A stretch of 64,000 nt of DNA from Muribaculaceae bacterium. Lineage in GTDB: Bacteria; Bacteroidota; Bacteroidia; Bacteroidales; Muribaculaceae. The position numbers and the translations under genes were made by a program. The notes below the pieces were generated by a model. The model was not told where the DNA came from, made no database searches, and was given only the letters and a program-made list of their open reading frames with translations. This document shows positions 7,321-34,293 of this stretch, one piece after another. The stretch spans positions 2,193-66,192 of the forward strand of contig JAIDRE010000059.1 of assembly GCA_029061925.1 (NCBI GenBank), written 5' to 3'. Within the stretch, counting starts at the first letter, position 1, and the number at the start of each line of letters is the position of its first letter.

Positions 7321-7327
7321 TAATCTT

Positions 7328-8815: not shown

Positions 8816-8820
8816 ATCTA

Positions 8821-9144
8821 TCAAGCCATAAATGGATTAGGAATATCATCGGGGCCTTTACCCGACGGCGCAGGGTTTACAGGCTGCTTGGGTTTGATTT
8901 CCCCAAATATTTTTTCATATTTTGCAATATTGTCGCGAAGTGTAAACATCAGATTTTTAGCGTTTTCGGGCGACATTATCACACGACTCTGAACGCGAGC
9001 CGGTCCCATATTGGGTACAAGCGATATAAAATCAACAAAAAACTCGTTAGGCGAGTGAGAAATCACCGCAAGATTTGAATAGACTCCGCCGGCAACTTCG
9101 GGCGAAATATCTATCTTGATTTCATTAGGGTTTTTATTGTCCAT
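8821..9144 (-). CDS. DUF3467-like protein
   Basis: 107 aa with [20 protein letters not shown], which I remember as the hallmark of the DUF3467 family. Confidence 0.6.
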
Positions 9145-9161
9145 AATATATTGTATTGTCG

Positions 9162-9848
9162 TTATTTATCAAGTTTTATTATAAATGAATCCATCGGCAG
9201 GTTTGAGTTGTTGATCATCACCTTCAAACTGTTACCGGGAAGCTGTTCTACGATATTCGACAGGTCAAATGCAATTCGATATTCGCGCTCAAAGGTCGGT
9301 TCGCCATCCTCAAGCTGCTGATAAAGATAGGCGGTTGCCATCTCATCACCGAGAGTCGATTTGTCAACCACTAATCCGAACTTGCGCTTGGTAGTCGAAT
9401 ATGGTATCTGAGCCTGTAAAATCAGTCGGTTATACATTGTATAATAACTCATCATATAGATAGGTGTGGAGTTCCACCCCTCTATATCTTTATGTTCTAT
9501 TATCTGACTCTTGATGTTAGTCATTTCTGAGTAACCGATAAGATAAATTTTCCCGCTTGAATAAGCAGTACGATTATCGGGGATTGTATAGCCGATAAAG
9601 GCACAGTCGCCAGGATTAATATTGTTCAGAGTAACCGTTGCGCCTGACGTATAGATAACATCATCGCCGGTTTCGGGATTCACAGTCAAAAACACAGGTT
9701 GCCCGTCAACCGCCCCGTCATAAATCACCACATTGTAATATGTGAACTCGTTGTTCGGCTCATTCTTATCGTTACATGACCACGCTACCGCTGCCATAAT
9801 AAGCATCGGAAGATAAACCGTCAATATTTTTTTCAGTCTATTTACCAT
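9162..9848 (-). CDS. lipoprotein (NigD-like, tentative)
   Basis: The internal ATG at 9848 gives MVNRLKKILTVYLPMLIMAAVAWSCND, a signal peptide plus lipobox Cys. The longer track ORF would overlap the ABC ATPase gene by about 90 nt. Confidence 0.45.
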   Translation of the reverse strand: MVNRLKKILTVYLPMLIMAAVAWSCNDKNEPNNEFTYYNVVIYDGAVDGQPVFLTVNPETGDDVIYTSGATVTLNNINPGDCAFIGYTIPDNRTAYSSGKIYLIGYSEMTNIKSQIIEHKDIEGWNSTPIYMMSYYTMYNRLILQAQIPYSTTKRKFGLVVDKSTLGDEMATAYLYQQLEDGEPTFEREYRIAFDLSNIVEQLPGNSLKVMINNSNLPMDSFIIKLDK

Positions 9849-10515
9849 CAGTTGAAATAGTGATTTTTTCAATCTGTCCGTCTCTAAGATGGATAATACG
9901 GTCGGCAGCCGCTGCGAGCGATTCATCGTGAGTGACGATTACAAATGTCTGATTCATGTCACGTCTCAAGTCAAAAAAGAGCTTGTGAAGTTCCTGTCGA
10001 TTAGCCGTATCAAGGCTTCCTGACGGTTCATCGGCAAGCACAACCTCAGGGTTGTTGATCAACGAGCGGGCAACCGCTCCACGCTGACACTCTCCACCCG
10101 ATAACTGAGCCGGACGATGCTCAAGACGGTTTTCAAGTCCAAGATATTTCAGCAGTTTCTCAGCCTTAGCCATTGCCTCGCGTCGCGATTCGCCACCTAT
10201 CATCGCCGGGATTGCAACATTTTCAAGAAGTGAAAACTCGGGCAACAGACGGTGAAACTGAAACACAAATCCGATGTTTCGGTTTCTAAATTTAGCCATC
10301 TCGTTTGCCGAAAGTTTGAAGATGCTGTTCCCGTTAAACGAGACTTCACCCGTATCGGGACGGTCGAGCGATCCCATTATCTGCAACAAGGTTGATTTAC
10401 CGGCTCCGCTTGGACCGACAATAGAAACAATCTCACCATCGTTGACCGACAGCGACACACCTTTCAAGACCTCTAAACGGTCAAAACTTTTTCTAACGTT
10501 TTTAACTTCTATCAT
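9838..10515 (-). CDS. ABC transporter ATP-binding protein (LolD/MacB type)
   Basis: Walker A GPSGAGKST, signature LSGGECQR, Walker B VVLADEPSGSLD. Confidence 0.85.
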   Translation of the reverse strand: MIEVKNVRKSFDRLEVLKGVSLSVNDGEIVSIVGPSGAGKSTLLQIMGSLDRPDTGEVSFNGNSIFKLSANEMAKFRNRNIGFVFQFHRLLPEFSLLENVAIPAMIGGESRREAMAKAEKLLKYLGLENRLEHRPAQLSGGECQRGAVARSLINNPEVVLADEPSGSLDTANRQELHKLFFDLRRDMNQTFVIVTHDESLAAAADRIIHLRDGQIEKITISTDGK

Positions 10516-10589
10516 TTCACTGCGAAGTTATCTATTTTTTTTCTCAAATAAAATTAATTTTAGGATTATTCATCACTTATATATAAAAT

Positions 10590-10625
10590 ACGCCACCATT
10601 ACCCAGTCCCGGGCGATGGTGGCGT
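10590..10625 (-). terminator. hairpin downstream of ald
   Basis: 10-bp perfect stem ACGCCACCAT/ATGGTGGCGT with a 16-nt loop. On the minus strand it is followed by AUUUUAUAUA. Confidence 0.4.
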
Positions 10626-10694
10626 CTACAGAAAAATGCGATAATGATATCGTTTTAATATCTCAATGTCGGAATTTTTCCGGTAGATCTTTTT

Positions 10695-11798
10695 TTATAA
10701 TTTAAGCTCGTGACATTCCATGCCAAAGGCTTCGGCAACAGCGGGAAATACAATTTCACCGTCAACAATGTTAACACCGAGAGCCAACGCTTTATCATCC
10801 TTGCATGCCTTCTTCCAACCTTTGTCAGCCAATGCCAATGCGTAGGGCAAAGTTGCATTTGTCAATGCCAAAGTTGAAGTCATCGGAACTGCACCCGGGA
10901 TGTTGGCAACTGCATAGTGAACAACACCGTCAAGAACGTATGTAGGTTCGCTGTGAGTTGTAGCGTGTGAAGTTTCAAAACATCCACCCTGGTCGATTGC
11001 AACGTCAACGAGGAGCGTTCCCGGTTTCATCAGTTTAAGCATCTCTTTTGTAACAAGATGAGGAGCTTTTGCACCGGGAATCAACACCGATCCGATAACA
11101 ACATCGGCATCTTTGATTTCCTGCTCGATATTGTGAGTTGATGAGTAGAGCGTCTTGATAGAGGGCATAATCTCAGCGATATAGCGAAGCGTGGGAAGTG
11201 AAATATCGGTGATTGTCACATCAGCACCCATACCGAGAGCTATTTTAGCAGCATTACGACCAACAACACCACCACCAAGAATAACAACTTTGGCAGGGCG
11301 TACGCCGGGAACGCCACCCATCAGCATACCTTTGCCACCCTGAGGTTTTTCGAGGAAGCGGGCAGCCTCTTGAATTGACATACGTCCGGCAACTTCACTC
11401 ATCGGAACGAGCAACGGAAGCGATCCGTTGGGAAGTTTCACAGTTTCGTAGGCAATACAGATTGATTTTGATTTTATCATCGCCTCGGTCAGAGGAAGAT
11501 CACTTGCAAAGTGGAAATAGGTAAACACAACCTGTCCTTTTTTAATCAGGTTATATTCTGGTTCTATCGGTTCCTTAACCTTAACAATCATTTCGGCAAT
11601 TTCATAAACAGCTTCAATGGTCGGTAAAATTTTTGCACCGGCGGCCTCATATTCAGCATCGCTGTACCCACTACCGTTTCCTGCATTTTTTTGCACATAG
11701 ACGGTATGACCATGTTTTACAAATTCTTTAACTCCGGCTGGGGTAGCGCCGACACGGTTCTCGTTGTTCTTAATCTCAGAAGGGATACCGATAATCAT
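10695..11798 (-). CDS. ald: alanine dehydrogenase
   Basis: MIIGIPSEIKNNENRVG N-terminus and Rossmann motif VVILGGGVVGRNAA. Confidence 0.92.
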   Translation of the reverse strand: MIIGIPSEIKNNENRVGATPAGVKEFVKHGHTVYVQKNAGNGSGYSDAEYEAAGAKILPTIEAVYEIAEMIVKVKEPIEPEYNLIKKGQVVFTYFHFASDLPLTEAMIKSKSICIAYETVKLPNGSLPLLVPMSEVAGRMSIQEAARFLEKPQGGKGMLMGGVPGVRPAKVVILGGGVVGRNAAKIALGMGADVTITDISLPTLRYIAEIMPSIKTLYSSTHNIEQEIKDADVVIGSVLIPGAKAPHLVTKEMLKLMKPGTLLVDVAIDQGGCFETSHATTHSEPTYVLDGVVHYAVANIPGAVPMTSTLALTNATLPYALALADKGWKKACKDDKALALGVNIVDGEIVFPAVAEAFGMECHELKL

Positions 11799-11948
11799 AA
11801 TGTAATAGTTTTTATGGTTTGGTTTATCATGGCTGATATATCATACCGACGTCTCACTCAGGTCGGGGATAATCAACACCGCAAATTTACGCAAATCTCA
11901 CAACCTACAAAATTTTTAATCTAAATAAATGTTAAAAAGAAAATAACA

Positions 11949-13031
11949 TTATGAATTGTGTGTTACCTGGTTGACTTTATCAACAATGCGTTGAGGGTCT
12001 ATCATAGTCATACAGCGGTAGTCGCCGTAGCCACACTCTTTGTCGCCGAACACTGAGCATGGGCGGCAGCAGAGGTCTTCTTCTTGTATAACCAAATCGT
12101 CGGGCTGACCCCACGGGCGGAAACCGACATACGGATGGGTTGCGCCCCAAATGCTGACGACAGGTGTGTTTACAAGCGAGGCGAGGTGCATATTTGCCGA
12201 ATCCATCGCAACCATACAATCGAGTCCACTCATCAACTGCAATTCAACATCAAAGCCAAGACGACATCCGGCAAGCGACACGACACGGTCATATTTCTCA
12301 GCCCATCGGTTGAGTATCGTAGCCTCATCGCCCCCGCCACCAAACAAAACGACGCGGTTTGATTCATCGGCAACAAGCTTCTCGACAACCTTTTGCATCA
12401 GATGAATAGGATATATCTTCCCTTTATGTTTTGCAAACGGAGCGATACCGATCAAGCGCTCGCTTGGCTGACGTACAACTCGACCGCCGGCAGTCAAATC
12501 TATGTCGCTATTCGTGTCATAAAGCCCTTTAAAACTTTCATCCGTTTTAATTCCGGTCTTTTCAAATGTGTCGGCATATCGCTGAATGGTCGATTTGAGT
12601 TTGACCATATCTTTATCGTGCGGTCGGGTGAGCTTCTTTTTATCACCCTTACCCTTGTCAATCGTCACGGTTTTCAGTCCGTTCAGGTGTCCGAGCAAAC
12701 CGATTGCCCGCGACCTCAATACGCCATGTAAATCAACGATCGTGTCAGGATTAAAACGACGTTTCAGATCTTTGAAAATTGACAAAAAACCTTTGACACC
12801 CTTCCATTTTGAGTCTTCAAGATCATAGGCAACAACCTCAAGATTGTCCGGTGCATTGACAAACAGCCGTGCCATTGCCGGACGTGTAGCAAACAGAAAT
12901 TTCACATCGGGATTGAGACGAGCAGCCGAATAAACCACCGGAATCGACATCGCAACATCGCCTATAGCCGAAAAACGGACTACTGCGATAGTCCGTTTAA
13001 ATTCGTTATTTTCAATTTTATTTTGCCCCAT
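11949..13031 (-). CDS. glycosyltransferase family 9 (heptosyltransferase-like)
   Basis: RFSAIGDV N-terminal motif and GT-B organisation typical of GT9. Confidence 0.8.
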   Translation of the reverse strand: MGQNKIENNEFKRTIAVVRFSAIGDVAMSIPVVYSAARLNPDVKFLFATRPAMARLFVNAPDNLEVVAYDLEDSKWKGVKGFLSIFKDLKRRFNPDTIVDLHGVLRSRAIGLLGHLNGLKTVTIDKGKGDKKKLTRPHDKDMVKLKSTIQRYADTFEKTGIKTDESFKGLYDTNSDIDLTAGGRVVRQPSERLIGIAPFAKHKGKIYPIHLMQKVVEKLVADESNRVVLFGGGGDEATILNRWAEKYDRVVSLAGCRLGFDVELQLMSGLDCMVAMDSANMHLASLVNTPVVSIWGATHPYVGFRPWGQPDDLVIQEEDLCCRPCSVFGDKECGYGDYRCMTMIDPQRIVDKVNQVTHNS

Positions 13032-13623
13032 AAAGAACAGGGTTGGTTTCGGGGTCGTTATACATCTTCATTTGGCGATAGACCTTCATATACTTGCGAC
13101 CTGCTTTAATGTCATCGAGAAGCGTGTCGATAGCTTCAGTCAAGTCTTTACGCTGTTCGAGCAACACATTCAGTTTTGCCCGGCACTTTGCAATATGTTC
13201 GGGACTCGCATCTTTACGGGCAACCTCAACCTGCATGTGATATATTTTCAGAGCAAGAATTGACAGGCGGTCAATAGCCCATGCCGGACTCTCGGTGTTG
13301 ATAGTTGCGGCAGCATCGGGATGGATTTCAGAGTATATATGAAGAAAATATGTATCAAGATCTTCAACCAAGTCAGTGCGTTCCTGGTTTGATCTATCTA
13401 TACGACGTTTGATTTCAAGAGCTTTGACAGGGTCAATCTCAGGGTCGCGAACTATATCTTCGAGGTGCCACTGAATAGCATCTATATTGTTTTTAGCATA
13501 AAGAGTATGCTCGACAGTTCCTTCGGCATATGGATTGGCAAATACTGCATCTACATCATCAACCAAGTGATAGTCAGATGTTGAACGATCAAAAATCTCG
13601 TTACACTTTTCAGCAAAAGTCAT
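13018..13623 (-). CDS. DUF4254-like protein
   Basis: 201-aa helical protein overlapping the GT9 gene by 14 nt. The family assignment is from memory of this conserved gene pair. Confidence 0.45.
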   Translation of the reverse strand: MTFAEKCNEIFDRSTSDYHLVDDVDAVFANPYAEGTVEHTLYAKNNIDAIQWHLEDIVRDPEIDPVKALEIKRRIDRSNQERTDLVEDLDTYFLHIYSEIHPDAAATINTESPAWAIDRLSILALKIYHMQVEVARKDASPEHIAKCRAKLNVLLEQRKDLTEAIDTLLDDIKAGRKYMKVYRQMKMYNDPETNPVLYGAK

Positions 13624-23800: not shown

Positions 23801-24214
23801 TACGTCCCAACCGAAAGCGAGCGCATCGCCCTATATCAGGAACTCGACAACATCGAGCGCGAAACCGACCTTCAGCAATTCAAAGAAAAACTTCAGGACC
23901 GTTTCGGCAAGATACCCCATGTAACATCCGAGCTTCTGCGTATCCCCCGACTCCGTCGTCTCGCCCGCCAGTTAGGCATCGAAAAAGTGACCCTCAAAAA
24001 CGAGCGAATGTACATCTACTTTGTTGACGAGAGCAACGTCGCCTACTATCAATCGCCAATGTTCGGCCGTCTCCTCAACTACCTGCAAAAAAATCCGCGA
24101 CGCGTCAAAATCCGCGAGAACGCCGGTCGCCGCAGCTTCGCCATCGACCACGTCGAAACCGTCGAAGAAGCCGTCGACATCCTCCAAGAAGTCCACTCGC
24201 TCGAAGCGATATAA
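20861..24214 (+). CDS. mfd: transcription-repair coupling factor
   Basis: 1117 aa with a CarD-like RNAP-interaction domain and SF2 motifs GDVGFGKTE, VIDEEQKFG and QLRGRVGR. Confidence 0.95.
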   Translation: MDLSQLRSLFMSKSRYEAIKSALKNPDGSVAKVGLYNLAGSSAAVALSGVDTGDVPMLVIGDSADDAGYLYHDLARLLGDEAVIIFPSGYKRDIKYGQPDPPAQVARTEALTMWQSNPDLKIIVTYPEALAERVATRDDLTGHTITLKLNTAIDLVETEKWLRENGFAEVDYVYEPGQFAVRGSILDIYSYSNELPYRIDFFGDEIDSMRTFNVETQLSVDKIDQLSITANVNAGAKDNGISLLEFVNPTTVIAARDASYTIERIRAIANENFSMSAIIADEGDPTAMEHVIDPDRFAADLNRFTQVLFTSSNTAPAGCTAAIDFDCSPQGLYHKNFDLISESFTEFLSKDYKIYILSDSAKQIERLREIFKDRKDDISFESVMPTLHEGFVDHKQKRCIFTDHQIFDRFHKYSLKSDRARSGKLALSLKELGSISVGDYIVHVDHGIGRFAGLVRTDINGKTQEMIKLVYQNDDIIFVSIHSLHKLAKYRGKEGVPPKINKLGTGAWNKMKERTKSHLKDIARDLIKLYAARKDEKGFSFSPDSFMQHELEASFKYEDTPDQLTATQAVKADMESARPMDRLICGDVGFGKTEIAIRAAFKAAADGKQTAVLVPTTVLAYQHYNTFKKRLKDFPVKVDYLSRARTPKQVKEILDNLAAGKIDIIIGTHKLIGKSVKFKDLGLLVIDEEQKFGVAVKEKLKQMKVNVDTLTMSATPIPRTLQFSLMGARDLSSIMTPPPNRFPVETTVASLTDDLVAEAVNFELSRNGQIFIINPRIEGLYDLQAMLKRVVPDARTLVAHGQMPPADLEKAIIDFANHDYDILLATTIIESGIDMPNVNTIMVNNAQYFGLSELHQLRGRVGRSNRKAFCYLFVPPHVPLTPVARRRLQAIESFSELGSGIHIAMQDLDIRGAGNLLGAEQSGFIADLGYETYQKILKEAVTELRTEEFSDVYADEETDQKEYVSDCTVESDLELLLPSFYVPTESERIALYQELDNIERETDLQQFKEKLQDRFGKIPHVTSELLRIPRLRRLARQLGIEKVTLKNERMYIYFVDESNVAYYQSPMFGRLLNYLQKNPRRVKIRENAGRRSFAIDHVETVEEAVDILQEVHSLEAI

Positions 24215-24218
24215 CCTC

Positions 24219-24244
24219 AGGCTAATTTAATCAGCTATTAGCCT
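24219..24244 (+). terminator. hairpin immediately after the mfd stop
   Basis: AGGCTAAT-(10 nt)-ATTAGCCT, a perfect 8-bp stem. No U-tract follows, so terminator function is uncertain. Confidence 0.35.
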
Positions 24245-24323
24245 CATAAGTCAAATTAAAACTATCAACCAACCAAGCCTTATAATTAGACCTTATAATA
24301 TTTATGTTCTAAAGCATAAACTC

Positions 24324-24354
24324 TTTGAAACTTAAATAATATTTTATAATTTTG
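24324..24354 (+). promoter_or_regulatory. consensus Bacteroidota promoter of the island operon
   Basis: TTTG (24324-24327), exactly 19 nt, TAATTTTG (24347-24354). The predicted transcription start is about 24359-24362. Two 9-bp direct repeats CCTTATAAT lie upstream at 24278-24286 and 24291-24299. Confidence 0.6.
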
Positions 24355-24359
24355 CACTG

Positions 24360-24490
24360 CAAGTAACGACAATCTGAAAATGACCAGTAAGTAGAATAAA
24401 AGACATACGGCGAGAGCCGAAAACCCTTTAAAACTCCCATGTAGTCGTTACCGGCTTTGGTCAGCCTTCAGATGCTATATTGGGAGTTCT
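24360..24490 (+). promoter_or_regulatory. candidate structured 5' leader / cis-regulatory RNA upstream of the methyltransferase fusion
   Basis: Perfect complements: 24363-24370/24444-24451 (8 bp), 24372-24378/24467-24473 (7 bp), 24381-24386/24458-24463 (6 bp), 24432-24439/24481-24488 (8 bp). There is also a CGGC-GAGA-GCCG hairpin at 24408-24419. Confidence 0.4.
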
Positions 24491-24532
24491 CTGTATAAAA
24501 AACATATCAAAAATAATATTGTAATATCAATA

Positions 24533-27058
24533 ATGAATAAAGATATCCTTTCAGAATTAAAGGACACTCCGGAACAGACATTAGTTGTCGGTCCTTTGGT
24601 TGAATTACTTGTCAAAGGAGGTTGGCAATTAGGTCAAATTATATATGGGAAAAATGAATGGAAAGTACCCAGGACTCCTTCGGAGGCATCTAAACGAGAG
24701 AAAGGCTCTTCTTTCGATTATTTTCCTGTTGATATTGCTGTATTTGATAGTGTTGCTAATTGTGGTGATTATCGCCACCTATTATTCATCATTGAGTGTA
24801 AACAACCTAAGATTGATGTTGGTCTTCAACAACTTGAGACCTACCTTTCTTTAGAGCCTCATGCAAAACTTGGCATATGGGTGAATAACGCAGATGCAAG
24901 TGCAAATGCACTTTTCGTTTATAAAAATGAAAAGGGGCTCCAATTTCCTAAACATAAAAAAGTCAAAGACTTTCCAATTGTAGGTAGCCCTTTGACTCCA
25001 GCCACTGTTTCTCTTACGTTTAATGATCTCGTTATACCAACGAAGGATAGTCTTTACCGTACTTTTTCAGATTTGTTGGACAAGGTGGTTGCACAAGATG
25101 GTAATGTTACCCGTAGGGAAGAACAACTGGATCAACTTTGCAACCTTGTACTCTTAAAACTTGATAGTGACAAGCAAGGAAAGATTGATTCTGAGGCAAC
25201 TGTATATTTTAGGGCCTTTGCTACAGAAAGTGCAACAGCAGACTACATAAAATCAAAATTTAAAAACTTTATAGATGTATATCCAGATATTTTTGTTTCC
25301 AAGTCAGATCAAGAAATACGTTTTGATGATGCGACTATACATGATGTCGTAGAGTGTCTCTCTACTTTCAATCTAATTGATATCGGTGCAGATACTGTTT
25401 CTATTGCTTTTCAAGTTCTACGTAGCGCAGCACTAAAGCAACAAGAGGGTCAATATTTCACACCTAAACAAGTTATTCAAGCAGCCCTTCGTCTTATAGA
25501 AGTATCTCTTGATGACATTATCATGGATCCGGCATGCGGGACAGGTGGATTCCTAATTCAAGCTTTAATAGATATGAAAGAAAGGTATCCAAATCAAGAA
25601 AAGGAGATATCAAGATGGGCACAACTGCATATTTTTGGTATTGATAAAGATGCTATAGGTATAAAACTTACCAAGGCAATAATGCAGATTCTCAATGACG
25701 GTTCTGCTCATTGTGTAAGGGGAGATAGTGTTTTGACTCATACATGGAAAAATAAATATCCTCATTTACTATCAAATCAATTCAAGAATGGGAGATTCAC
25801 AAAAATTTTCACCAATCCTCCTTTTGGTGCTCCTTTAAAGATAAAATATGCTGATGCTAAAAAATCTTCATTGAGTATTGTGGAATATACGGAACAAGGT
25901 AAAGATATTGAATTGGGGCTACTAATGTTCAATAGGTGTGTAGATTTACTAAAAGAGGGTGGTAAATTATGCATTGTTCTTCCTGAAACATACTTTTTTT
26001 CGCCGTCATATAAGTATGTAAGAGAGTGGGCATTTGAAAGATTGAAACCAATTTGCGTTGCAAATGTTCCAATGGATGCATTTCAAGGATTCTGTAGGGC
26101 AAAAACAAATCTTTATATTTTTGAGAAGATATTTGAAGGTCAGTCTAACATTGACTTTGAAAATGATACTGTGGCTTTTATCAATCCAACTTCTTGTGGT
26201 ATTTATAAGAACGGTGCAGATAGATTTGTTGTAGATTCAAATGGAAATCGAACAAATGTAATAGATAATCAGTTGCTTGCTCAAGCCACAGAATATGCTA
26301 ACAAAGATATGAAACATGCTTTTAATATTCCATTGAAAGATGTGCTTAAATCTGGAGTGCTTGTCCCCCAATACTTTGACAAAACGTTACAATATCCATC
26401 TGAAAAATTGTATACATACTTAGGAACTCAGGGAATAAGTATCGGGGAACTTATTGACAAAGGCATTATTCAACTATTTAATGGACACGGAAGCCCTAGC
26501 AATGATCTGAGGAATGGTGAAGTCCCATATGTGAAAGTGTCAGATATTCGCAATTTACGAATTAATGTCAATCCAACTAATCTTATTCCACTTCCATTAG
26601 CGCAAAAGTTTTGGAAATCTGAGGATGGGAAAAGCAACCTTAAAGCATGGGATTTAATTTCTCCGAGTCGTGCGAGTAGTAATATTGGAGAGTTTGCTAT
26701 CCTTTTACCGGGCGAAGAATCTATTGTTCTAACTAAAGAAGTTTTCATTATACGAGTTAATCATAATTCGATTGGAATTACTCCTTTCTACCTTTTATGG
26801 GCTTTAAGCCTTAAAGAAACGCGAAAACAATGGGCTAGGGTTACGCTTATGCAAACTAACCGTGAAGATGTTGGTCAAAGATACCGCGAAATCACAATTC
26901 CTTATCCATTGTCTGCCAGCTGGGCTGATAAAGTATGTAAATCGTTTAGAGATTATTTTGAAGGTATTGCAAAAGCGAAGGCAAACTTTGTTGCAAGTAC
27001 ATCCACAGACGAATTCAACTATATTGCAAGTGTGAGTGCTTTTAATCAGAGTTTGTAA
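24533..27058 (+). CDS. single-chain PD-(D/E)xK-like domain + gamma-class N6-adenine DNA methyltransferase + one TRD (type IIG-like R-M-S fusion)
   Basis: N-terminal FPVD(67)IAVFD...LFIIE(88)CK(90) resembles the HsdR N-terminal nuclease fold. MTase motifs: QYFTPK (aa 307-312), DPACGTGGF (aa 332-340, nt 25526-25552) and NPPF (aa 428-431, nt 25814-25825). The C-terminal roughly 210 aa start like an HsdS TRD (IGELIDKGIIQLFNGHGSPS...GEVPYVKVSDI). Confidence 0.8.
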   Translation: MNKDILSELKDTPEQTLVVGPLVELLVKGGWQLGQIIYGKNEWKVPRTPSEASKREKGSSFDYFPVDIAVFDSVANCGDYRHLLFIIECKQPKIDVGLQQLETYLSLEPHAKLGIWVNNADASANALFVYKNEKGLQFPKHKKVKDFPIVGSPLTPATVSLTFNDLVIPTKDSLYRTFSDLLDKVVAQDGNVTRREEQLDQLCNLVLLKLDSDKQGKIDSEATVYFRAFATESATADYIKSKFKNFIDVYPDIFVSKSDQEIRFDDATIHDVVECLSTFNLIDIGADTVSIAFQVLRSAALKQQEGQYFTPKQVIQAALRLIEVSLDDIIMDPACGTGGFLIQALIDMKERYPNQEKEISRWAQLHIFGIDKDAIGIKLTKAIMQILNDGSAHCVRGDSVLTHTWKNKYPHLLSNQFKNGRFTKIFTNPPFGAPLKIKYADAKKSSLSIVEYTEQGKDIELGLLMFNRCVDLLKEGGKLCIVLPETYFFSPSYKYVREWAFERLKPICVANVPMDAFQGFCRAKTNLYIFEKIFEGQSNIDFENDTVAFINPTSCGIYKNGADRFVVDSNGNRTNVIDNQLLAQATEYANKDMKHAFNIPLKDVLKSGVLVPQYFDKTLQYPSEKLYTYLGTQGISIGELIDKGIIQLFNGHGSPSNDLRNGEVPYVKVSDIRNLRINVNPTNLIPLPLAQKFWKSEDGKSNLKAWDLISPSRASSNIGEFAILLPGEESIVLTKEVFIIRVNHNSIGITPFYLLWALSLKETRKQWARVTLMQTNREDVGQRYREITIPYPLSASWADKVCKSFRDYFEGIAKAKANFVASTSTDEFNYIASVSAFNQSL

Positions 27059-27138
27059 TCAATTTTATAATGAAATCTGACTAAAAACAATGGAGGCCAT
27101 GCCATTTAGTAAATAATTAAGCAGTGTAATCATAATTT

Positions 27139-29442
27139 ATGAAAGCAATATATCTAGATTTACACATACATACCTCAGAAGATGCAAATAAGCCTAATGC
27201 ATCCTATGATATAGCAGAATTGGTTCGTAAGATCAAGGAGTATAATGACAACTCTGATTTTATGATTTCCCTTACTGATCATAATATGATTAATAAGGAT
27301 GCTTACCTCAAGGGATTGGCATTAGGAATTAAAATGATTTTAGGGGTTGAATTACATATCAAACATGAAGATGATGTAAAGGCTTATCATTGTCATATGT
27401 TCATCAATAAAGAAATTACAGAAGATACAATTGATGACATAAACAAGATACTAGATAAACTATACCCAGAAAAATTACCGAATAGAACAGAGTCGTCTAT
27501 CCCTGATATTCAGCAGATAATTAATAGTTTTGATGATTATGATTTTATGCTTTTGCCTCATGGCTCTCAACGACATGGAGCGTTCAATTATTCAATTGGC
27601 AAGGATAAACGTTTAGACAATGCAATAAATAGATCCATATACTATAATCAATTTGATGGATTTACTGCTCGAAGTAATGACGGTTTAGAACAAACAAATG
27701 AGTATTTTAAAAAGCTCGGTATTGCCGAGTTCATTAATTTACTTACTTGTTCTGATAACTATTCTCCCAGTAGTTATCCATCCACAAAAAGTAAAGAAGC
27801 AAATGAATTTGTTCCAACATGGATGTTTGCAGAACCAACATTTGATGGCCTTCGCCTGTCCTTGTCTGAATCATCTAGATTAGTGGTACAAAAAGATAAA
27901 CCTGTAGTCAGAACTGATCATATTGGACATATAGTGCTCAAGAATGAACATATTGACATTGATGTAACATTATCGGATGGTTTAAATGTGGTTATTGGAG
28001 GATCCTCTTCTGGGAAGACTCTATTTGTCGATTCAATTTTTAAGGCCATTAATCATTCGTTTGAAGGTTCAAAATATGTCGATAGATATGGGGTAGATCG
28101 AATTGCAGTTGAGAATCCTTCAAATATGCTTCCGTATTACATCTCTCAAAATTTCATTGCAGAGAATATTAGTGATAACAATGAGAAGTCTATTGACGAA
28201 ATAGAAATACTTCATAATATTTTCCCATCAGACAAAGAAATTAATCAGCAGATTACAACGGCATTAAATTCTCTGAATACCATTGTTGCAAATATGTTAA
28301 ATCATGTAGCAACAATTGAATCTTGTATAACGTCACTCAATGCCCTTCCACACCCAGGAATGATGGTGGTTAATACTGTAGTAAAAAGGAATATCTATAA
28401 TTCGTTTATACCTAAAGATGAAGAGACAAATAGTATTAAATACTCTCAACCTACATATGAGGAGCATTTAAAGAACCTTCAAGAGATTAAGATATTCCTT
28501 GAGAATAATCCTCTGACGCAAGATCTAATTAGAGAGTTTCAATCTATAGAAAACGAATTAAAATTTGCTTATCAAGCAAGTAATGTTTCTAATGAAATAT
28601 TACACCACATATTGGATAGAAAGAAGAATGTTGATGTCCATTTGCGTGAAACACAGGGCATTGATCAAGAACGATTACAGAATAAGGAACGTTTAATGAC
28701 GTTAATTGCCAAATATGTATCAGCAATAAAAGGTTTTTATGCATGTAGAAAGCAATTGTCTGAAACTAAATATTCCTTTTCTACGAATATTGTTGAGTCA
28801 ATGGGACATAAATTATCTATTCATAATAATTTTAAGTTTGATGAAAATATCCTAATCACCACTCTAAACCAATATCTTAAATATTCGTTTAAGAGAATGA
28901 GTGATGTTATCCCGGAGAATTTATTCAAAAGGTATTTTAAAGATCGTCCCCGGGTTGAGTCGTACGATGAATTAGGTAGAAAGATTCAATCGTACTTGTC
29001 GGATGCCAATACAAAATCATATCAAATCACGACAAGCAATGGTGTCGACTTTAATTCACTGAGTCCGGGATGGAAAACGGCGATCTTATTAGATTTAATA
29101 TTAGGATATGAGGATGATAATGCCCCAATAATTATTGATCAACCAGAGGATAATCTTGCAGTAAAATATATTAACTCTGATCTCGTTGCCACTATAAAAA
29201 GAGTAAAAACCAGAAAGCAGGTAATTCTAGTTTCCCATAACGCGACCATTCCTATGATGGCGGATGCTCAGACAATTATTTTGTGTGAGAACGACGGTTC
29301 CAAAATCACTATTCGGTCTGCATCTTTAGAAGGTTTAATCGGAGACAAAAAGGTTCTTGACTATATCGCGGATCAAACTGATGGAGGAAAATCATCAATA
29401 AAAAAACGTGTGAAAAAATATAACTTTAGACATTTTAATTAG
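27139..29442 (+). CDS. PHP-domain phosphoesterase fused to a Rad50/SbcC/RecF-like ABC ATPase with a long helical insert
   Basis: PHP motifs: DLHIHTSED (aa 7-15), LTDHN (aa 45-49), GVELH (aa 69-73), LLPHG (aa 138-142). ATPase motifs: Walker A GGSSSGKT (aa 287-294, nt 27997-28020), signature-like LSPGWKT (aa 641-647), Walker B PIIIDQPED (aa 663-671, nt 29125-29151), H-loop VSHN (aa 698-701). About 340 aa separate Walker A from the signature. The architecture recalls the single-gene Ppl system (PplA) and possibly the name TrlF-like AAA ATPase. That is from memory and needs an HMM check. Confidence 0.75.
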   Translation: MKAIYLDLHIHTSEDANKPNASYDIAELVRKIKEYNDNSDFMISLTDHNMINKDAYLKGLALGIKMILGVELHIKHEDDVKAYHCHMFINKEITEDTIDDINKILDKLYPEKLPNRTESSIPDIQQIINSFDDYDFMLLPHGSQRHGAFNYSIGKDKRLDNAINRSIYYNQFDGFTARSNDGLEQTNEYFKKLGIAEFINLLTCSDNYSPSSYPSTKSKEANEFVPTWMFAEPTFDGLRLSLSESSRLVVQKDKPVVRTDHIGHIVLKNEHIDIDVTLSDGLNVVIGGSSSGKTLFVDSIFKAINHSFEGSKYVDRYGVDRIAVENPSNMLPYYISQNFIAENISDNNEKSIDEIEILHNIFPSDKEINQQITTALNSLNTIVANMLNHVATIESCITSLNALPHPGMMVVNTVVKRNIYNSFIPKDEETNSIKYSQPTYEEHLKNLQEIKIFLENNPLTQDLIREFQSIENELKFAYQASNVSNEILHHILDRKKNVDVHLRETQGIDQERLQNKERLMTLIAKYVSAIKGFYACRKQLSETKYSFSTNIVESMGHKLSIHNNFKFDENILITTLNQYLKYSFKRMSDVIPENLFKRYFKDRPRVESYDELGRKIQSYLSDANTKSYQITTSNGVDFNSLSPGWKTAILLDLILGYEDDNAPIIIDQPEDNLAVKYINSDLVATIKRVKTRKQVILVSHNATIPMMADAQTIILCENDGSKITIRSASLEGLIGDKKVLDYIADQTDGGKSSIKKRVKKYNFRHFN

Positions 29443-29451
29443 AGCAAGAAG

Positions 29452-29697
29452 ATGACATTAAAATTTGATAAGACTCCAAATGGAGACATCTCGATATGTA
29501 TCTATGATGGTACAAATATTCTACCATTCTCATATGTTGAGTTAATCAAGAATATAATGGCAAACGATATTATTGAAACTGATTACTCATCATCAATAAC
29601 AGAAGATGAACACAAGCAAATTGATGAACTAATTACCGAAATAGAATGCGTGGTGCATCCTAAAAGTGAATCAGATGCCACACCCTCTCTGTTTTGA
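29452..29697 (+). CDS. hypothetical small acidic protein (81 aa)
   Basis: ATG lies 9 nt after the stop of the PHP-ATPase gene. By my count it has 16 Asp/Glu against 5 Lys and no Arg. I recognise no family. Confidence 0.5.
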   Translation: MTLKFDKTPNGDISICIYDGTNILPFSYVELIKNIMANDIIETDYSSSITEDEHKQIDELITEIECVVHPKSESDATPSLF

Positions 29698-29779
29698 CGT
29701 AACTGCCTAGGCGAAAGGGGTATTGACAGTCGCTTCATCGTAATAAATTGTAATATATATCTGTCCAATTTATAGAAAT

Positions 29780-30628
29780 ATGAAACTTATATATAAAAGT
29801 CGAGGATTTCCTATTACTATAGAGAAATATATCCCAAATTCTTTTGCATACGATCAATGGGTTATATCGGACGAATATTCTAAAGTAGCTGTTGGTAATG
29901 AATATAGGATTGTCGTAACTTCTTTGGCTGATATACGAGACCATAATGACCTAACTCTTATAGCAGTCCAAACTTCCGCATTTATAGAAAAGCTAACCAT
30001 GCTTCTAAAGTATGCGGTAGGCATGTCACTAAATTCTCCACATAAGCAAATAACATATCGGTGTACACGTGGTATTGATATTAGAGAATTACCTAATGGG
30101 TGGAATGCCAACATAGACGAAATAGACTCTTTCTTAATGGAAACTCGTTCGTCACACATTAGTATAACTGTATTTCCCAATAACGCCAATATGCCTACTT
30201 CTGCGTTGCCAGAATTACAAATAGCACTTAACAACTACGATGCACTTGATGAGGAAATAAAGGATCTGATAGCTCTTCATAATAGTGCTGTTGAATCAGA
30301 TGAGCGCTCATGTTTCCTTATTATGAGTAAAGTTCTTGATATGATAAACTTCTTATATCCTCCATCTAAATCTCATCCCCATAATGATAAAAGGATCTCA
30401 CAATATTTTCCGGAACTTCAGCCTTTTTTCATTGACACAACGATAAGGAAATTATTTGAAATATCAAATCAAAGAAAAGAGACGAGACACTACGAAAATC
30501 AGAAGACCCGTACTCCCCACAAATCCATTAAAGGACACGAAGCAGAACAATTTTTCCAACGTGTTGATGTGCTTGCATTATCGGTTGTCCGGAACAGGTT
30601 AGGATTGCCACCTCTAAATATAATATAA
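29780..30628 (+). CDS. hypothetical protein (282 aa); helical C-terminal half with an Rx4H motif (possible HEPN-like)
   Basis: Longest ORF in this interval and on the same strand as its neighbours. RKETRH (aa 232-237, nt 30473-30490) is flanked by predicted helices. I recognise no family. Confidence 0.5.
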   Translation: MKLIYKSRGFPITIEKYIPNSFAYDQWVISDEYSKVAVGNEYRIVVTSLADIRDHNDLTLIAVQTSAFIEKLTMLLKYAVGMSLNSPHKQITYRCTRGIDIRELPNGWNANIDEIDSFLMETRSSHISITVFPNNANMPTSALPELQIALNNYDALDEEIKDLIALHNSAVESDERSCFLIMSKVLDMINFLYPPSKSHPHNDKRISQYFPELQPFFIDTTIRKLFEISNQRKETRHYENQKTRTPHKSIKGHEAEQFFQRVDVLALSVVRNRLGLPPLNII

Positions 30629-30666
30629 TTAAATTTTAGGTCAACTTATAAACATAGAAAAAGATT

Positions 30667-31008
30667 ATGAATTCCAATGATATACGCCCTTTGATAAATC
30701 AACTTTCCAAATCAACCTCAAAGGAAGAACAAATAATCATTAAATCCTTCCTCTCTGGCTCGTATAAAGCAGAGTATGATTATGTAATGGCAATTTTAGA
30801 TAAGTCTATTTGTGTCTCTAAAATTTCAAGTGATGCAATAGACAAGGCTGTTGAATGTACTAAATTATTCAACGAGGCTATGGCATTATCTCAGGATCTC
30901 AATGAGGAACAACGAAAAGAAGCGGAATTACGCCGTGAAGGAATTGCGCAAGAATTCAAAGAGCATTGTTATGCGACAATACGCTCTTATGGTATAAAAA
31001 TTGAATAA
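30667..31008 (+). CDS. hypothetical helical protein (113 aa)
   Basis: ATG lies 38 nt after the previous stop and the composition is helix-rich. It is the last gene before the convergent minus-strand gene. I recognise no family. Confidence 0.45.
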   Translation: MNSNDIRPLINQLSKSTSKEEQIIIKSFLSGSYKAEYDYVMAILDKSICVSKISSDAIDKAVECTKLFNEAMALSQDLNEEQRKEAELRREGIAQEFKEHCYATIRSYGIKIE

Positions 31009-31067
31009 TCCATCTATTTGGGGAAACTTTTTGATTAAAATATATTAAGGACTGGTAATAAGTAAGT

Positions 31068-32528
31068 TTAATCTTTTACAACAACCCAATGCCCATTTTT
31101 ATCACTCCCTTCGCGTGCTATCATACCTAATTGGCGGAGAGCCATAGTTGCTCGTTTTGCGGTTTTGTCTGTTATAGATAATTGTTCTGCTATTTCTCGA
31201 TGAGTTATATTGTGATTCTCTTTAATTCGAGCAAGAACTTGTCGCTGTGTCTCGGTTAGATTTACAGGGACATTTACAGGGACATTTACAGGGACATTTA
31301 CAGGGACATTTTTAGCATCATCACTATTTTCTGTTTTTCTTTGGATAGCTGATTTCAGAGGGAAAGAGACTATGGCTTTTGTCCGGTCACTATCAACTGA
31401 CGGGCGTGTCCCTGTAAGTGACTCCCAGCTTGCAAGTTTATTCATTCCGTAACCGGCATTTTCAGCGATACCGACAAATCTGAACAGTTTCGCAATAGTC
31501 GGATTGCGGAGCTTGGAGTAAACTTTTCCAATAATGTCTTTTACAGGGAGCGGGAAGCATCCTCCGTTCATAAACTCTATATGATCGGTATAAACGCGGA
31601 TACAGGAGCGCAACGAATCGAAGTGGTCGCCGTGCATAACCATATTTGCAAGTGCCTCTCTGAGAACATTATATTGGCTCTCATCTGTTGTCGCAAATCC
31701 ATCTTCTTTAATATGGATTGGTGCATCAACAAGTGTACGAAATCGTCGCAAAATAATTTGGACTGAATCCCATATATTGTCTTGTTCTGGTATTCGATAT
31801 GTGTATCTAACTTCTGCCTGTTCAATAGTTGGACCGGGGATTTCGATATAGTCAACACAGAATGTCGGCACATAGCGTAAGACATAGGGAGCTTTGCCGA
31901 ACATCAGAAGTCCGGCATAGGTTAGCAAACCATTTCGCGTGATGTTGACCTGCTCGCAGAATTCAGCATCATCCACCTCGCGGAGATTGACAAGATTTTG
32001 CGTCTGACTAAGTGCGAATCTATAACTTTTTAATGTATTGAGATTAAGCATATCAATACTCGTATCGGGAATAGTCTCCTCGGTTTTCTTTCCAAAGGAT
32101 TGATCACGAAACATGGCGCGTATCTCACCTTCAGTTGCCCTTTGGTCTCCGCTACCCATTCTGATGAATGTGTTGATAGGGCTACCATAATATACCGGTT
32201 TTAAATCAACCTCCGGTACATAAAAAGCAAGAAGTTTCTTGCCGTCAATGTCGTATTGCTTAGAAGTTACTGCCAATCTTTGGTTAAACTTCTCTGATCG
32301 CAGAGTGCCAAGAAAATCCTGTTCAAGTTTCTCAATGTTATCCACCCCTTGTATCTCAAATGTCTTGCCGGTCTGCTTCACTCCGAGTACAATCCATCCG
32401 CCGGAGGTATTCGAGAATGCGCTGACGCTTTCCCAGATATTCTTCGGTAACTCAGATTTTGCAGCCTTGACTTCAAAATCTTCCCATTCTATGTCGTGCA
32501 GCTTTGCTACAAGTTCATTCTTGGTCAT
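31068..32528 (-). CDS. COG2865-type protein: AlbA_2 (Schlafen-like) N-domain + HATPase_c_4-like domain + C-terminal wHTH
   Basis: N-terminal E(W)EDFEVKAA...SAFSNTSGGWIVLGV pattern, central ...REALANMVMHGDH..., and C-terminal wHTH (LTETQRQVLARIKENHNITHREIAEQLSITDKTAKRATMALRQLG). Confidence 0.75.
   Translation of the reverse strand: MTKNELVAKLHDIEWEDFEVKAAKSELPKNIWESVSAFSNTSGGWIVLGVKQTGKTFEIQGVDNIEKLEQDFLGTLRSEKFNQRLAVTSKQYDIDGKKLLAFYVPEVDLKPVYYGSPINTFIRMGSGDQRATEGEIRAMFRDQSFGKKTEETIPDTSIDMLNLNTLKSYRFALSQTQNLVNLREVDDAEFCEQVNITRNGLLTYAGLLMFGKAPYVLRYVPTFCVDYIEIPGPTIEQAEVRYTYRIPEQDNIWDSVQIILRRFRTLVDAPIHIKEDGFATTDESQYNVLREALANMVMHGDHFDSLRSCIRVYTDHIEFMNGGCFPLPVKDIIGKVYSKLRNPTIAKLFRFVGIAENAGYGMNKLASWESLTGTRPSVDSDRTKAIVSFPLKSAIQRKTENSDDAKNVPVNVPVNVPVNVPVNLTETQRQVLARIKENHNITHREIAEQLSITDKTAKRATMALRQLGMIAREGSDKNGHWVVVKD
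31261..31308. repeat. perfect 12-bp tandem repeat x4 (TTACAGGGACAT), in frame
   Basis: Read directly from the sequence. It encodes (NVPV)x4, seen in the protein as VPVNVPVNVPVNVPVN, between the HATPase-like domain and the wHTH of the gene at 31068-32528. Confidence 0.95.
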
Positions 32529-32628: not shown

Positions 32629-33639
32629 TTAATTATCTCTAAACTTATTTTCTATCTTTGCTACAACCCCGAGTATATCTGCAAACGAGGGTACATTATC
32701 TTCGTATATCATATTCATGACCATTGTATCATAATCGTTTTCCCATTCTGCTATGACACTTTCAGGAGGAGTGAGGGTAATACGTTTGCGAACGTCCGGT
32801 GTGTAGTTAACATCGCGTATTGAAGTAAATACTTCCCGATGATGACGAATGGTTTCCCACAGTTCATCATCTTGAATAGCTTTGTTAGCGATTCCAGCCT
32901 CATACATCTTGTATATATCATACAAGTGTCGTGATTTACGATTGGCATTCCGGCAACCATCAGTTGTGAATAACTCATGAAGCAGGAATACCTTTTCAAG
33001 AAATGTCTTTTCTGCAACAGCCACAACAATCTGAACTTCGTTGTCATTTGATGTAAGATGTGGAAACATCCCAGATACAAAAGATTCAACCTTTGTTTTG
33101 GCTGTCGGTTCGAAAAGAGACCGGGCTCCAACTTCCAGCAGAACCTCATCACGGAGATATGGATTAGCTCCAGAGGGAAATACTGACTTATAGATAATAT
33201 GAATCTGCCGAGGTTCTGGATATGTCGCATCTCCTTCACCATCGGGGTCAGCTTTAATCGTCACAAATCCACTTAATCCTGCTTGTTCTACCGCCATTTT
33301 CAGATCATTGGCGAAAGTATCACGAACAAATACAGACGACACTTTACGCAATTTCTTTAACTCCTTCTTGGTTACATTACCATCAATTCCGAACATACTG
33401 CGATCTATGGCAATGTCAATATCTTCAGAGAACCGTAGTATGACTCCCCAAACTTTGCTCAGTGATGTACCACCTTTGAACACCATCTTTTCAGCGTATG
33501 GTAGAGAGAAAAGAATATTGAGTATTTCCGTTACCCAAAAATCTTTCTCAATTGCAGCCACCGGAAGTTTTATCTTTGCGGCCGTCTGCTCAAAAACAGT
33601 TCTTCTTTGAGTCTCGGTAAGTGTCAGAAATTTATTCAT
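32629..33639 (-). CDS. abiEii: AbiEii/AbiGii-family nucleotidyltransferase toxin (DUF1814)
   Basis: FKGGTSLSKVWGVILRFSEDIDIAIDR is the NTase motif (GG[ST]...R.S.DID) of this family. Confidence 0.88.
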   Translation of the reverse strand: MNKFLTLTETQRRTVFEQTAAKIKLPVAAIEKDFWVTEILNILFSLPYAEKMVFKGGTSLSKVWGVILRFSEDIDIAIDRSMFGIDGNVTKKELKKLRKVSSVFVRDTFANDLKMAVEQAGLSGFVTIKADPDGEGDATYPEPRQIHIIYKSVFPSGANPYLRDEVLLEVGARSLFEPTAKTKVESFVSGMFPHLTSNDNEVQIVVAVAEKTFLEKVFLLHELFTTDGCRNANRKSRHLYDIYKMYEAGIANKAIQDDELWETIRHHREVFTSIRDVNYTPDVRKRITLTPPESVIAEWENDYDTMVMNMIYEDNVPSFADILGVVAKIENKFRDN

Positions 33640-34237
33640 AGGAATCGAGTATAATCTTACGGATCCATGCCGGAATCAAGGCAAAATCCTTTTTTATTGT
33701 TTCAAACGGTATGGTTTTAACTATATTGCGGATATGTGCAAGTTGGCTATCGTTAATATTATTTTCTCCGATTTCGCGCAGAGCAAAAGTGAGAAGCATG
33801 GCGATTTCATTCCGGAAGGCCAGATTTTTTTTAGCAGTATGCTTGAACTGTATTCCCCTACTACCCTCTAACTTTACTTTACGCGGAGAACCATCTGTCA
33901 AATACACCACATTCATCGGCAACTGGGTTGATAATCCAAGCTTATTAAGCGCATACGCTCCTGTAGGAACAATCGTAGCTTTGTCACGCCTTGCAATAGC
34001 GGCTGCAATGTCCTCAATTGTGGGATAAAGAATACCCAATCCCAAAACCTTATCAATTTTTGGATAACAATAGACACCTTGCGCCACCCGAAGCAATTGT
34101 TTGGACGCAACAAGCCGTCCGAAAGCCTTATGAACTGCATTAAGCGTGCCATATGAAGCGAAATCCTGCGGAAATACAATTGTACCCCTTCCGCGTTTAG
34201 CCATATTTGTTAATATCTTATTTTCAATAGATTGCAT
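33632..34237 (-). CDS. abiEi: AbiEi-family antitoxin (DUF6088-like wHTH)
   Basis: 201 aa directly upstream of abiEii with an 8-nt overlap. The N-terminal wHTH-like segment is GTIVFPQDFASYGTLNAVHKAFGRLVASKQLLRVAQGVYCYPK. Confidence 0.8.
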   Translation of the reverse strand: MQSIENKILTNMAKRGRGTIVFPQDFASYGTLNAVHKAFGRLVASKQLLRVAQGVYCYPKIDKVLGLGILYPTIEDIAAAIARRDKATIVPTGAYALNKLGLSTQLPMNVVYLTDGSPRKVKLEGSRGIQFKHTAKKNLAFRNEIAMLLTFALREIGENNINDSQLAHIRNIVKTIPFETIKKDFALIPAWIRKIILDSYE

Positions 34238-34261: not shown

Positions 34262-34293
34262 CAAATTTACAATAAATTTCTGACAAAACCAAA
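34262..34293 (-). promoter_or_regulatory. putative abiE promoter
   Basis: On the minus strand: TTTG (34293-34290), 20 nt, TAAATTTG (34269-34262), about 25 nt upstream of the abiEi ATG. A palindrome ACTTCATT-AAA-AATGAAGT (34302-34320) abuts it. Confidence 0.4.

Follow-up and report, generated by a model that had tools for sequence, protein, structure and literature searches.

PrrC and RloC are 'restriction-linked' second-line effectors, which are embedded in type I restriction-modification (R-M) loci. Two other described systems come close to the locus that is analyzed here. Ppl is a PHP-type 3'-5' exonuclease of single-stranded DNA with an NTPase domain, which is controlled by the levels of nucleoside triphosphates and by 3'-OH ends (reviewed in PMC12904381). 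MADS, which is encoded by the genes mad1-8, employs methylation for the discrimination between self and non-self, and the MacSyFinder model for the system needs MAD6, MAD7 and MAD8 (bioRxiv 10.1101/2023.03.30.534895). A literature search on TrlF, a named relative of Ppl, turned up only unrelated acronyms, and a search on PHP/Rad50 anti-phage proteins found nothing. Here we compare with these systems a cluster of five genes (g1 to g5, see Table 1) and its RNA leader, located within a stretch of 64,000 nucleotides (nt) of a Muribaculaceae bacterium (contig JAIDRE010000059.1), which is referred to as the window. We consider it probable, and hold this view with good confidence, that the cluster represents a horizontally acquired modular defence operon and not one five-component machine.

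The boundaries of the modules became apparent from DNA comparisons with other loci (indicated by L and a number). The homology between the window and L016/L017 is limited to 27090-29610, and that between the window and L101/L102 to 24303-24472 and 29767-31049. L018 (JAAVEM010000016.1, from the metagenome-assembled genome (MAG) Bacteroides sp. Mgla_MAG_15-bin_4) carries the operon at 7155-13200 with 95% DNA identity. The DNA that it has in common with the 64-kb window covers 24302-30338 only, with the breakpoint exactly at 24302; the flanks differ and the mfd gene, found upstream of the cluster in the window, is lacking. Since nothing beyond 24302-30338 is common to the two, the operon of L018 resides at another chromosomal site. 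Judged from these sequence comparisons, there appear to be three anti-phage modules, g1, g2-g3 and g4(-g5), each of them independently mobile, and the five-gene set would be a patchwork. The first-pass annotation of the window had offered as its alternative that a type IIG R-M enzyme, a Ppl-like single-gene system and a third module sit side by side. This turned out to be essentially right, except that the Ppl-like module consists of two genes, g2 and g3.

The first of these two genes could be characterized in most detail. Pfam assigns a PHP domain to residues 7-89 of g2; the Walker A motif occupies residues 287-294, and around 340 amino acids (aa) lie between it and the remaining ATPase motifs, namely the signature, Walker B and H-loop (642-701). 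None of the catalytic motifs (HxH, Walker A, signature, Walker B and H-loop) varies among 14 homologues, which confirms the earlier description of g2 as a PHP domain joined to an ABC ATPase that is split by a long insert. The NCBIfam model for TrlF (NF045780) scored 201.8 bits against a cut-off of 350, and the one for Ppl (NF042955) 93.2 bits against a cut-off of 1000, the latter over the C-terminal 130 aa only. PADLOC returned Ppl (1e-21) and, weakly and for the ATPase head, mad3 (1.6e-6). In hhalign comparisons the alignment of g2 to an annotated TrlF was end-to-end (probability 99%, 709 columns), and that to an annotated Ppl covered the C-terminal 118 columns only (98%). Given the end-to-end homology to TrlF and the score of 201.8 bits, which remains under 350, g2 is placed within the TrlF superfamily and outside the TrlF family. 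It is a distant full-length relative of TrlF/Ppl that stays under every curated cut-off.

The family of g2 is large, comprising at least 1289 protein clusters (E ≤ 1e-5); of 600 candidate stretches on contigs representing one genome per species, at least 568 were confirmed. The gene neighbourhood was analyzed for 80 of these loci, whose g2 homologues show full-length identities of 41-99% and derive from many phyla, including Bacteroidota, Bacillota, Campylobacterota, Planctomycetota, Actinobacteria and Patescibacteria. We found that an acidic, g3-like open reading frame (ORF) of 73-105 aa starts 3-15 nt past the g2 homologue in 76 of the 78 loci that could be judged (73 of the 80 by ORF call and three by tblastn; two contigs end within g2), and 69 of the g3-like ORFs constitute one BLAST cluster. 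None of the other neighbour families occurred in more than 17 of the 80 loci; the most frequent one was cluster c2 (unannotated, ~400 aa) and the next one was found in at most seven. The gene directly upstream of g2 varies and includes HsdR, AAA_15/21, HATPase_c_3, RT, HD-CE, RloB and AlwI. An iterated hidden Markov model search identified a gamma-class N6-methyltransferase (MTase) within 7 kb of g2 in 15 loci. An N6_Mtase gene directly upstream of g2 was found in L018 only, and the same holds for the presence of g1, g4 or g5 beside g2. Close members of the g2 clade were absent from IMG/VR. On basis of this synteny, g2-g3 is predicted to be an autonomous two-gene unit that occurs across many phyla, in which g3 is probably translationally coupled to g2.

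A model of g3 was obtained with AlphaFold2 (AF2) from a shallow alignment of six sequences (pLDDT 81.7). It suggests a small domain of the order beta-beta-beta-alpha-beta-alpha, followed by a disordered acidic tail. Neither a profile search nor Foldseek produced a PDB match for g3, and none of g3, g4 and g5 had a match in Pfam, NCBIfam or PADLOC (in PADLOC not even at E ≤ 10), in line with the earlier remark that these three genes resemble nothing recognized. The assumption in the first-pass annotation that the 81-aa acidic protein is a modulator becomes plausible with respect to the ATPase of g2, because the Ppl-like module is made up of two genes. The poly-acidic tail varies within the g3 family, and in at least 13 of 73 members, belonging to separate clades, it ends in a hydrophobic-Phe tip (such as DDLPF, ENLPF or EEIPF; L046, L049, L095, L030, L031, L080, L027 and others). 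The g3 protein of the window ends in PSLF. In bacteria, the C-terminal tip of the single-stranded DNA-binding protein SSB recruits genome-maintenance proteins, and the tips of the g3 tails resemble it.

The protein encoded by g1 contains the motifs DPACGTGGF and NPPF and matched the Pfam families N6_Mtase (1.1e-23), Eco57I (3e-9) and MmeI_Mtase, and weakly HSDR_N_2 (E 0.007). The PADLOC models MTase_II (2.8e-37), mad2 (4.6e-32) and REase_MTase_IIG were recovered as well, and the best PDB match was RM.BsaXI (1e-15). The D67/E88/K90 motif and Q100 are conserved in distant relatives. The architecture claimed for g1 earlier was a PD-(D/E)xK-like N-terminal domain, a gamma-class N6-adenine MTase and a single target recognition domain (TRD). 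The first two parts are borne out by the nuclease-like motif and the MTase motifs; the TRD is to be taken as putative, because no match to Methylase_S or another Pfam TRD family covers the C-terminal third (280 aa) of the protein. Full-length orthologues with 42-47% identity reside on plasmids of Thermus and Corynebacterium, amid transposase, recombinase and partition genes, and are not accompanied by g2-g5. Considering its domain composition, g1 looks like a self-contained type IIG-like R-M enzyme, in which one chain includes a putative specificity domain.

The third module is restricted to Bacteroidales. The 42 clusters of g4 homologues are all at least 49% identical and were all recovered from Bacteroidales-type metagenomes or MAGs. 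The Rx4H motif that had been noted before could be confirmed: R232-KETR-H237 is invariant in 28 homologues. The HEPN-like nature attributed to g4 was not corroborated. Pfam HEPN_Apea matched two of the 28 family members (E 0.07), hhalign gave a probability of 0.16% for an ApeA protein, a PDB profile search was without match, and the best Foldseek matches were not significant (E 0.65 for the PDB and 0.04 for BFVD; AF2 model with pLDDT 73.5, and below 50 in the Rx4H region). The HEPN label derives from the Rx4H motif and is tentative. The contexts of g4 were compared for homologues with 56-81% identity, and they differ even at 76-81%. Besides the window and L018, they include a different HSDR_N_2/N6 MTase with a GmrSD_N gene and two small ORFs (L101/L102), two C5 MTases with an HNH gene (L104), a PLD-SNF2 protein with an Eco57I-type MTase and an SMC-like ATPase (L011), an MTase with an ATPase (L014/L015), an MTase-S fusion (L012), an ApeA-HEPN gene on a mobilisable element (L103) and a Fic gene (L001/L002). 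In L004-L007 g4 occurs alone, and in L008-L010 it is frameshifted and located in a Dnd/OLD/retron island. In six of ten contexts g4 forms the end of a DNA-MTase array, and the MTases concerned are mutually unrelated. These distributions argue for g4 being a mobile, Bacteroidales-restricted cassette, whose tie to MTase operons is statistical and involves unrelated MTases.

The small gene g5 had six matches among 1.84 billion representative proteins. It is found 3' of g4 in L101/L102 (80% identity) and, in broken form, in L104, and it is absent from g4 loci with less than 74% identity. In L101/L102, where g4 is 81% identical, an ORF of 52 aa just upstream of g4 is similar, at 56% identity, to the first 48 residues of g5, with full g5 located downstream (8220-8378 and 9344-9685 in L101; 5428-5586 and 6552-6893 in L102). 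This partial duplication on either side of g4 hints at the way in which the cassette moves. A similar g5 relic upstream of g4 was searched for in the window and none was found. At more distant g4 loci the place of g5 is taken by proteins of 269-282 aa, whose N-terminal segments are hydrophobic and resemble transmembrane helices (L011 11496-12326, L012 10858-11706 and L014 10515-11324). Two of these replacements are weakly related (23% identity, E 4e-7). An alternative partner of g4, possibly a membrane effector, is suggested.

The five ORFs are separated by 80, 9, 82 and 38 nt, and the G+C content is 0.31-0.38 over 24.5-31 kb, versus 0.48-0.53 in the upstream mfd; these properties were as described before. 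The promoter pattern TTTG-N17-21-TAnnTTTG has 11 matches in the 64-kb window, versus 1.9 expected, of which a single one lies on the plus strand between 24.3 and 31 kb. A hairpin scan detected no terminator-like site in any of the gaps between g1 and g5, nor between g5 and the convergent gene at 31068. Pattern count and hairpin scan thereby agree with the earlier report of one consensus promoter and no terminator. The genes g1-g5 are probably read as one transcript from one promoter, and co-transcription becomes more plausible because a leader RNA follows the promoter. The possibility that the promoter is invertible was rejected; the inverted repeats do not lie on both sides of the promoter but past its 3' end.

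The leader was recognized as a block of high conservation immediately behind the promoter, in the segment that the window shares with L101/L102 upstream of g1. A 20-mer within it (CATACGGCGAGAGCCGAAAA) occurs once in the window and has exact copies in 41 metagenome contigs and in two IMG/VR contigs. Other copies of the leader were found in L018 (7211-7357), L101 (3891-4035), L016 (7051-7207), L104 (2194-2331) and L105-L147. The TAnnTTTG element is kept in all leader loci, and at other leader loci the promoter is preceded by palindromes similar to the one listed in Table 1. An alignment of 28 distinct copies was analyzed with RNAalifold. The predicted fold contains an invariant CGGC-GAGA-GCCG (GNRA) hairpin and a long outer stem with a small hairpin inside it. 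In addition there is a pseudoknot, formed between the loop of this outer stem and a segment at the 5' side (AUCUGAA..GACC). Helix 5 of the outer stem shows changes on both sides in eight of eight pairs, and 91.7% of the cells in the alignment can pair, versus 32-43% when the partners are slid. The covariation score was reached by none of 500 shuffles. Compensatory changes were observed in the pseudoknot, where AUCUGAA/UUCAGAU is replaced by UAUGCGA/UCGCAUA in L016 and by CUGAC/GUCAG in L104, and in the inner hairpin, where AGGC/GCCU is replaced by AGGU/ACCU in L104. Furthermore, the covariance model recovers diverged leaders, namely those of L016/L017, preceding HsdM-like, HsdS, g2 and g3 genes, and that of L104, preceding two C5 MTases, an HNH gene and g4. 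One helix that had been considered, P1 (GTAACGAC/GTCGTTAC), was dropped as it pairs in 66% of the cells and is not conserved.

In around 20 loci the first start codon is located ~96-119 nt past the 20-mer, and this near-constant distance implies that the leader is an element of the 5' untranslated region. The first genes downstream encode type IIG-like MTases, ResIII/SNF2/PLD helicase-nucleases, Dam-type MTases and AAA_15/21 ATPases, as well as WYL-WCX regulators, an N6_N4 MTase, DUF6079 and Bro-N proteins. The leader thus precedes diverse R-M/defence operons of Bacteroidales. Given its fixed distance of around 100 nt to the start codon and its occurrence in only two IMG/VR contigs, an independent small RNA or a phage element is unlikely. 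L106 and L132, which share the 20-mer and not the remainder of the leader, were discarded as chance matches. A comparison of the region 24100-31300 with Rfam 15 (4227 families) gave no match at E ≤ 1, and the best one within 24300-24545 reached 15 bits versus a gathering threshold of 60. In the literature we found no description of a Bacteroides R-M leader RNA. The leader may have a regulatory role.

Taking these data together, we put forward a tentative synthesis, with a conviction that stops somewhat short of an even chance. The leader could constitute an undescribed class of cis-regulatory RNA that acts as a common switch for unrelated R-M/defence operons of Bacteroidales and that, with g4-g5, serves as homologous anchor for the swapping of cargo. 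In the same synthesis, g2-g3 could be an uncharacterised, phylum-spanning two-component branch of Ppl/TrlF, in which the acidic partner (some with DDLPF tips, SSB-like) gates the nuclease. In the modular reading, which we consider probable, the Bacteroidetes promoter and pseudoknotted leader would drive three independently mobile modules. By itself, g1 would act as a type IIG-like R-M system with a PD-ExK nuclease motif, an MTase and a putative specificity domain. For g2, the likeliest working model is provided by the mechanism described for Ppl (PMC12904381). If g2 resembles Ppl and SbcCD in this respect, ATP-controlled engagement of the heads would most likely allow the protein to recognize and degrade DNA ends or unusual invader DNA. 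An obligate partner of g2, g3 would most likely be a regulatory or inhibitory subunit, for instance a mimic of DNA or of the SSB tail, or an adaptor. Together with the lineage-specific g5, g4 would dock repeatedly 3' of unrelated R-M operons of Bacteroidales, possibly as a second-line (guard/abortive-infection) effector.

Several points weigh against the modular reading. The neighbour analysis is founded on our own ORF calls and on a biased sample, 80 of at least 568 loci. In Bacteroidales, g2-g3 is often found directly 3' of R-M genes, such as HsdM-like and HsdS genes in L016/17 and type I HsdR genes in L020/21/23/24/67. The resemblance of g1 to MAD2 and the weak resemblance of g2 to mad3 hint at a MADS-like core of MTase and ATPase. 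Finally, the tight spacing, the one promoter and the absence of terminators between the genes are in keeping with one transcript, which makes functional cross-talk possible. A rival proposal is a looser coupling, in which the g2-g3 of Bacteroidales serves the R-M system next to it, whichever that is, as an additional effector or as its guard, like MAD2/MAD3 or PrrC/RloC. The pair would then exploit or survey the adjacent MTase/REase and not depend on a single dedicated partner. The position directly after R-M genes, shared by the window and the loci just mentioned with L064, L092 and L093, the PADLOC matches of g1 and g2 to mad2 and mad3, the presence of the leader before operons with an MTase gene in first and g2-g3 or g4 in last place, and the similar docking of g4 all agree with this proposal. 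Yet around 80% of the g2-g3 loci lack a gamma-class MTase within 7 kb, many neighbours are unrelated to R-M, and the adjacency is equally expected from the clustering of genes in defence islands. We regard this coupling as unlikely.

Still less probable, to the point of being very unlikely, is the integrated methylation-guarded system that the first-pass annotation had proposed, in which g1 marks self DNA, g2 and the supposedly HEPN-like g4 attack unmethylated DNA, and g3 and g5 modulate their activity. The compact single-promoter layout is what one would expect of such a system, and L018 displays the same gene order as far as its contig reaches. Linkage of g2-g5 to a g1-like MTase in the same order was, on the other hand, found in this near-identical MAG only. 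The conservation pattern argues against integration, because homologues of g2-g5 are not linked to a g1-like MTase, g1 orthologues occur without g2-g5, and g4 travels alone. Moreover, g2-g3, g1 and g4 are each widespread in the absence of the other modules, g5 is an ORFan, and the modules have separate homology boundaries. The notion that the cluster is not involved in defence, with g2-g3 as SbcCD-type repair or housekeeping nuclease-ATPase and g1 as orphan regulatory MTase, can draw on Rad50 being the sole PDB sequence match of g2 (E ~1e-3) and is hardly credible in view of the patchy, horizontally transferred distribution, the low G+C content, the different chromosomal site of the L018 copy, the overwhelming presence of defence genes among the neighbours, and the annotation of the closest named relatives, Ppl and TrlF, as anti-phage or plasmid-borne.

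Under the modular reading, the five genes do not merit an entry of their own as a methylation-guarded machine; they illustrate that defence operons of Bacteroidales are built from interchangeable modules. The PHP-ATPase pair g2-g3 and the leader RNA are the parts most worth pursuing. The former is very widespread and missed by the curated Ppl and TrlF models, and it could extend the paradigm of DNA-end-sensing nucleases to two components. If regulatory, the leader would represent a rare case of common control of immune genes at the RNA level, and it would also be a marker for defence cassettes in gut metagenomes. A further candidate is g4, as a possible 'guard' of restriction systems in gut Bacteroidales.

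Downstream of the cluster, the low-GC stretch contains a Schlafen-type gene and an AbiEi/AbiEii pair, and for that reason it can be considered a defence island. The pair has its own TTTG..TAnnTTTG promoter, and the island reaches up to around 34.4 kb. The family of the Schlafen-type protein (AlbA_2/HATPase_c_4, cluster c3) is the commonest annotated neighbour family of g2-g3 among the 80 loci, with seven occurrences (L016, L017, L026, L028, L046, L049 and L083). In the protein encoded in the window, a perfect tandem repeat, NVPVNVPVNVPVNVPVN, consisting of around four copies of a 12-nt unit, covers residues ~405-421 between the HATPase_c_4 and winged helix-turn-helix domains, and it could be a slippage-prone linker. 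In the five loci L020, L021, L023, L024 and L067, g2-g3 begins 20 nt past the hsdR gene of a type I hsdM-hsdS-hsdS-hsdR array and closes this array on the 3' side, in a 'restriction-linked ORF' layout. The respective genomes are of Aphodosoma, Palleniella muris, Alistipes putredinis, Bacteroides muris and one uncultured Bacteroidales MAG.

Table 1. Features of the operon and of the adjoining part of the island (positions refer to the window)
Feature	Position	Strand	Description
Palindrome	24303-24320	+	TTATGTTCTAAAGCATAA; just 5' of the -33 element; left homology edge with other operon/leader copies
Promoter	24324-24354	+	Bacteroidetes-type, TTTG-N19-TAATTTTG; pattern match
Leader RNA	24356-24503	+	Pseudoknotted, ~148 nt; covariance model R1, 138.5 bits
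g1	24533-27058	+	841 aa; single chain with PD-(D/E)xK-like N-domain, gamma-class N6-adenine MTase and putative C-terminal TRD
g2	27139-29442	+	767 aa; PHP phosphoesterase fused to Rad50/SMC-like ABC ATPase, insert of ~340 aa
g3	29452-29697	+	81 aa; acidic protein (isoelectric point 4.15), partner of g2
g4	29780-30628	+	282 aa; no fold match; invariant N-x-R-K-E-T-R-H-Y motif; found 3' of different R-M operons
g5	30667-31008	+	113 aa; ORFan
Convergent gene	31068-32528	-	Schlafen AlbA_2, HATPase_c_4 and winged helix-turn-helix
AbiEii toxin	32629-33639	-	PADLOC AbiEii 4e-96; Pfam AbiEii 7e-30
AbiEi/DUF6088 antitoxin	33632-34237	-	PADLOC AbiEi 1e-65; Pfam DUF6088 6e-61
Promoter of the AbiEii/AbiEi pair	34262-34293	-	

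A comparison with the named systems clarifies the position of the individual modules. The hallmark proteins of BREX (PglZ/BrxC/BrxL), DISARM (DrmA/B), Dnd-Ssp (DndC-E) and type I R-M (HsdR) were searched with PADLOC, Pfam and NCBIfam in g1-g5 and the four downstream genes and none was present, as had been stated on first inspection. MADS comes closer: in PADLOC and NCBIfam, the MAD2 methyltransferase finds its best match in g1, with the N-terminal domain included, and the ATPase head of g2 weakly matches mad3. The score of g1 with the MAD2 equivalog model (NF047738) is, however, 168.3 bits versus a cut-off of 720, which amounts to a family-level resemblance only; the cluster is not an eight-gene operon and has no kinase, and PADLOC gave no match to mad6, mad7 or mad8 in g3-g5 or the neighbouring genes, even at E ≤ 10. 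With the type IIG/IIB single-chain enzymes (RM.BsaXI, MmeI- and Eco57I-type) g1 shares the combination of a PD-ExK-like motif, gamma-class MTase motifs and a C-terminal extension in one polypeptide, whereas its matches to these enzymes span the MTase core only and the match of the nuclease domain is weak.

The PrrC and RloC effectors are resembled in location by g4 and, in Bacteroidales, by g2-g3, which are found inside or at the end of varied R-M operons, and g4 has in addition the Rx4H motif that is seen in HEPN anticodon nucleases. Unlike these effectors, g4 does not have an ATPase domain, and its similarity to PrrC/RloC or to any HEPN family did not exceed noise in sequence or fold. In TrlF and Ppl, as in g2, an N-terminal PHP domain is followed by an ABC/Rad50-like ATPase that is split by a long helical insert. 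The difference lies in the length, ~890-1020 aa for TrlF/Ppl and 767 aa for g2, and in the organization. Like Ppl, g2 unites PHP and ABC ATPase in one chain, but Ppl and TrlF are single genes while members of the g2 clade almost invariably come with g3. The two TrlF genes that were inspected have no g3-like ORF behind them, and the Ppl gene, located at the end of its plasmid record, has none annotated 3' of it. The leader, finally, is similar to the cis-regulatory leaders and riboswitch-like attenuators of Rfam in having a fixed site between promoter and start codon, conserved blocks, a GNRA hairpin, a covarying long stem and a pseudoknot, and it differs from them in that it precedes defence/R-M genes and not metabolic genes.

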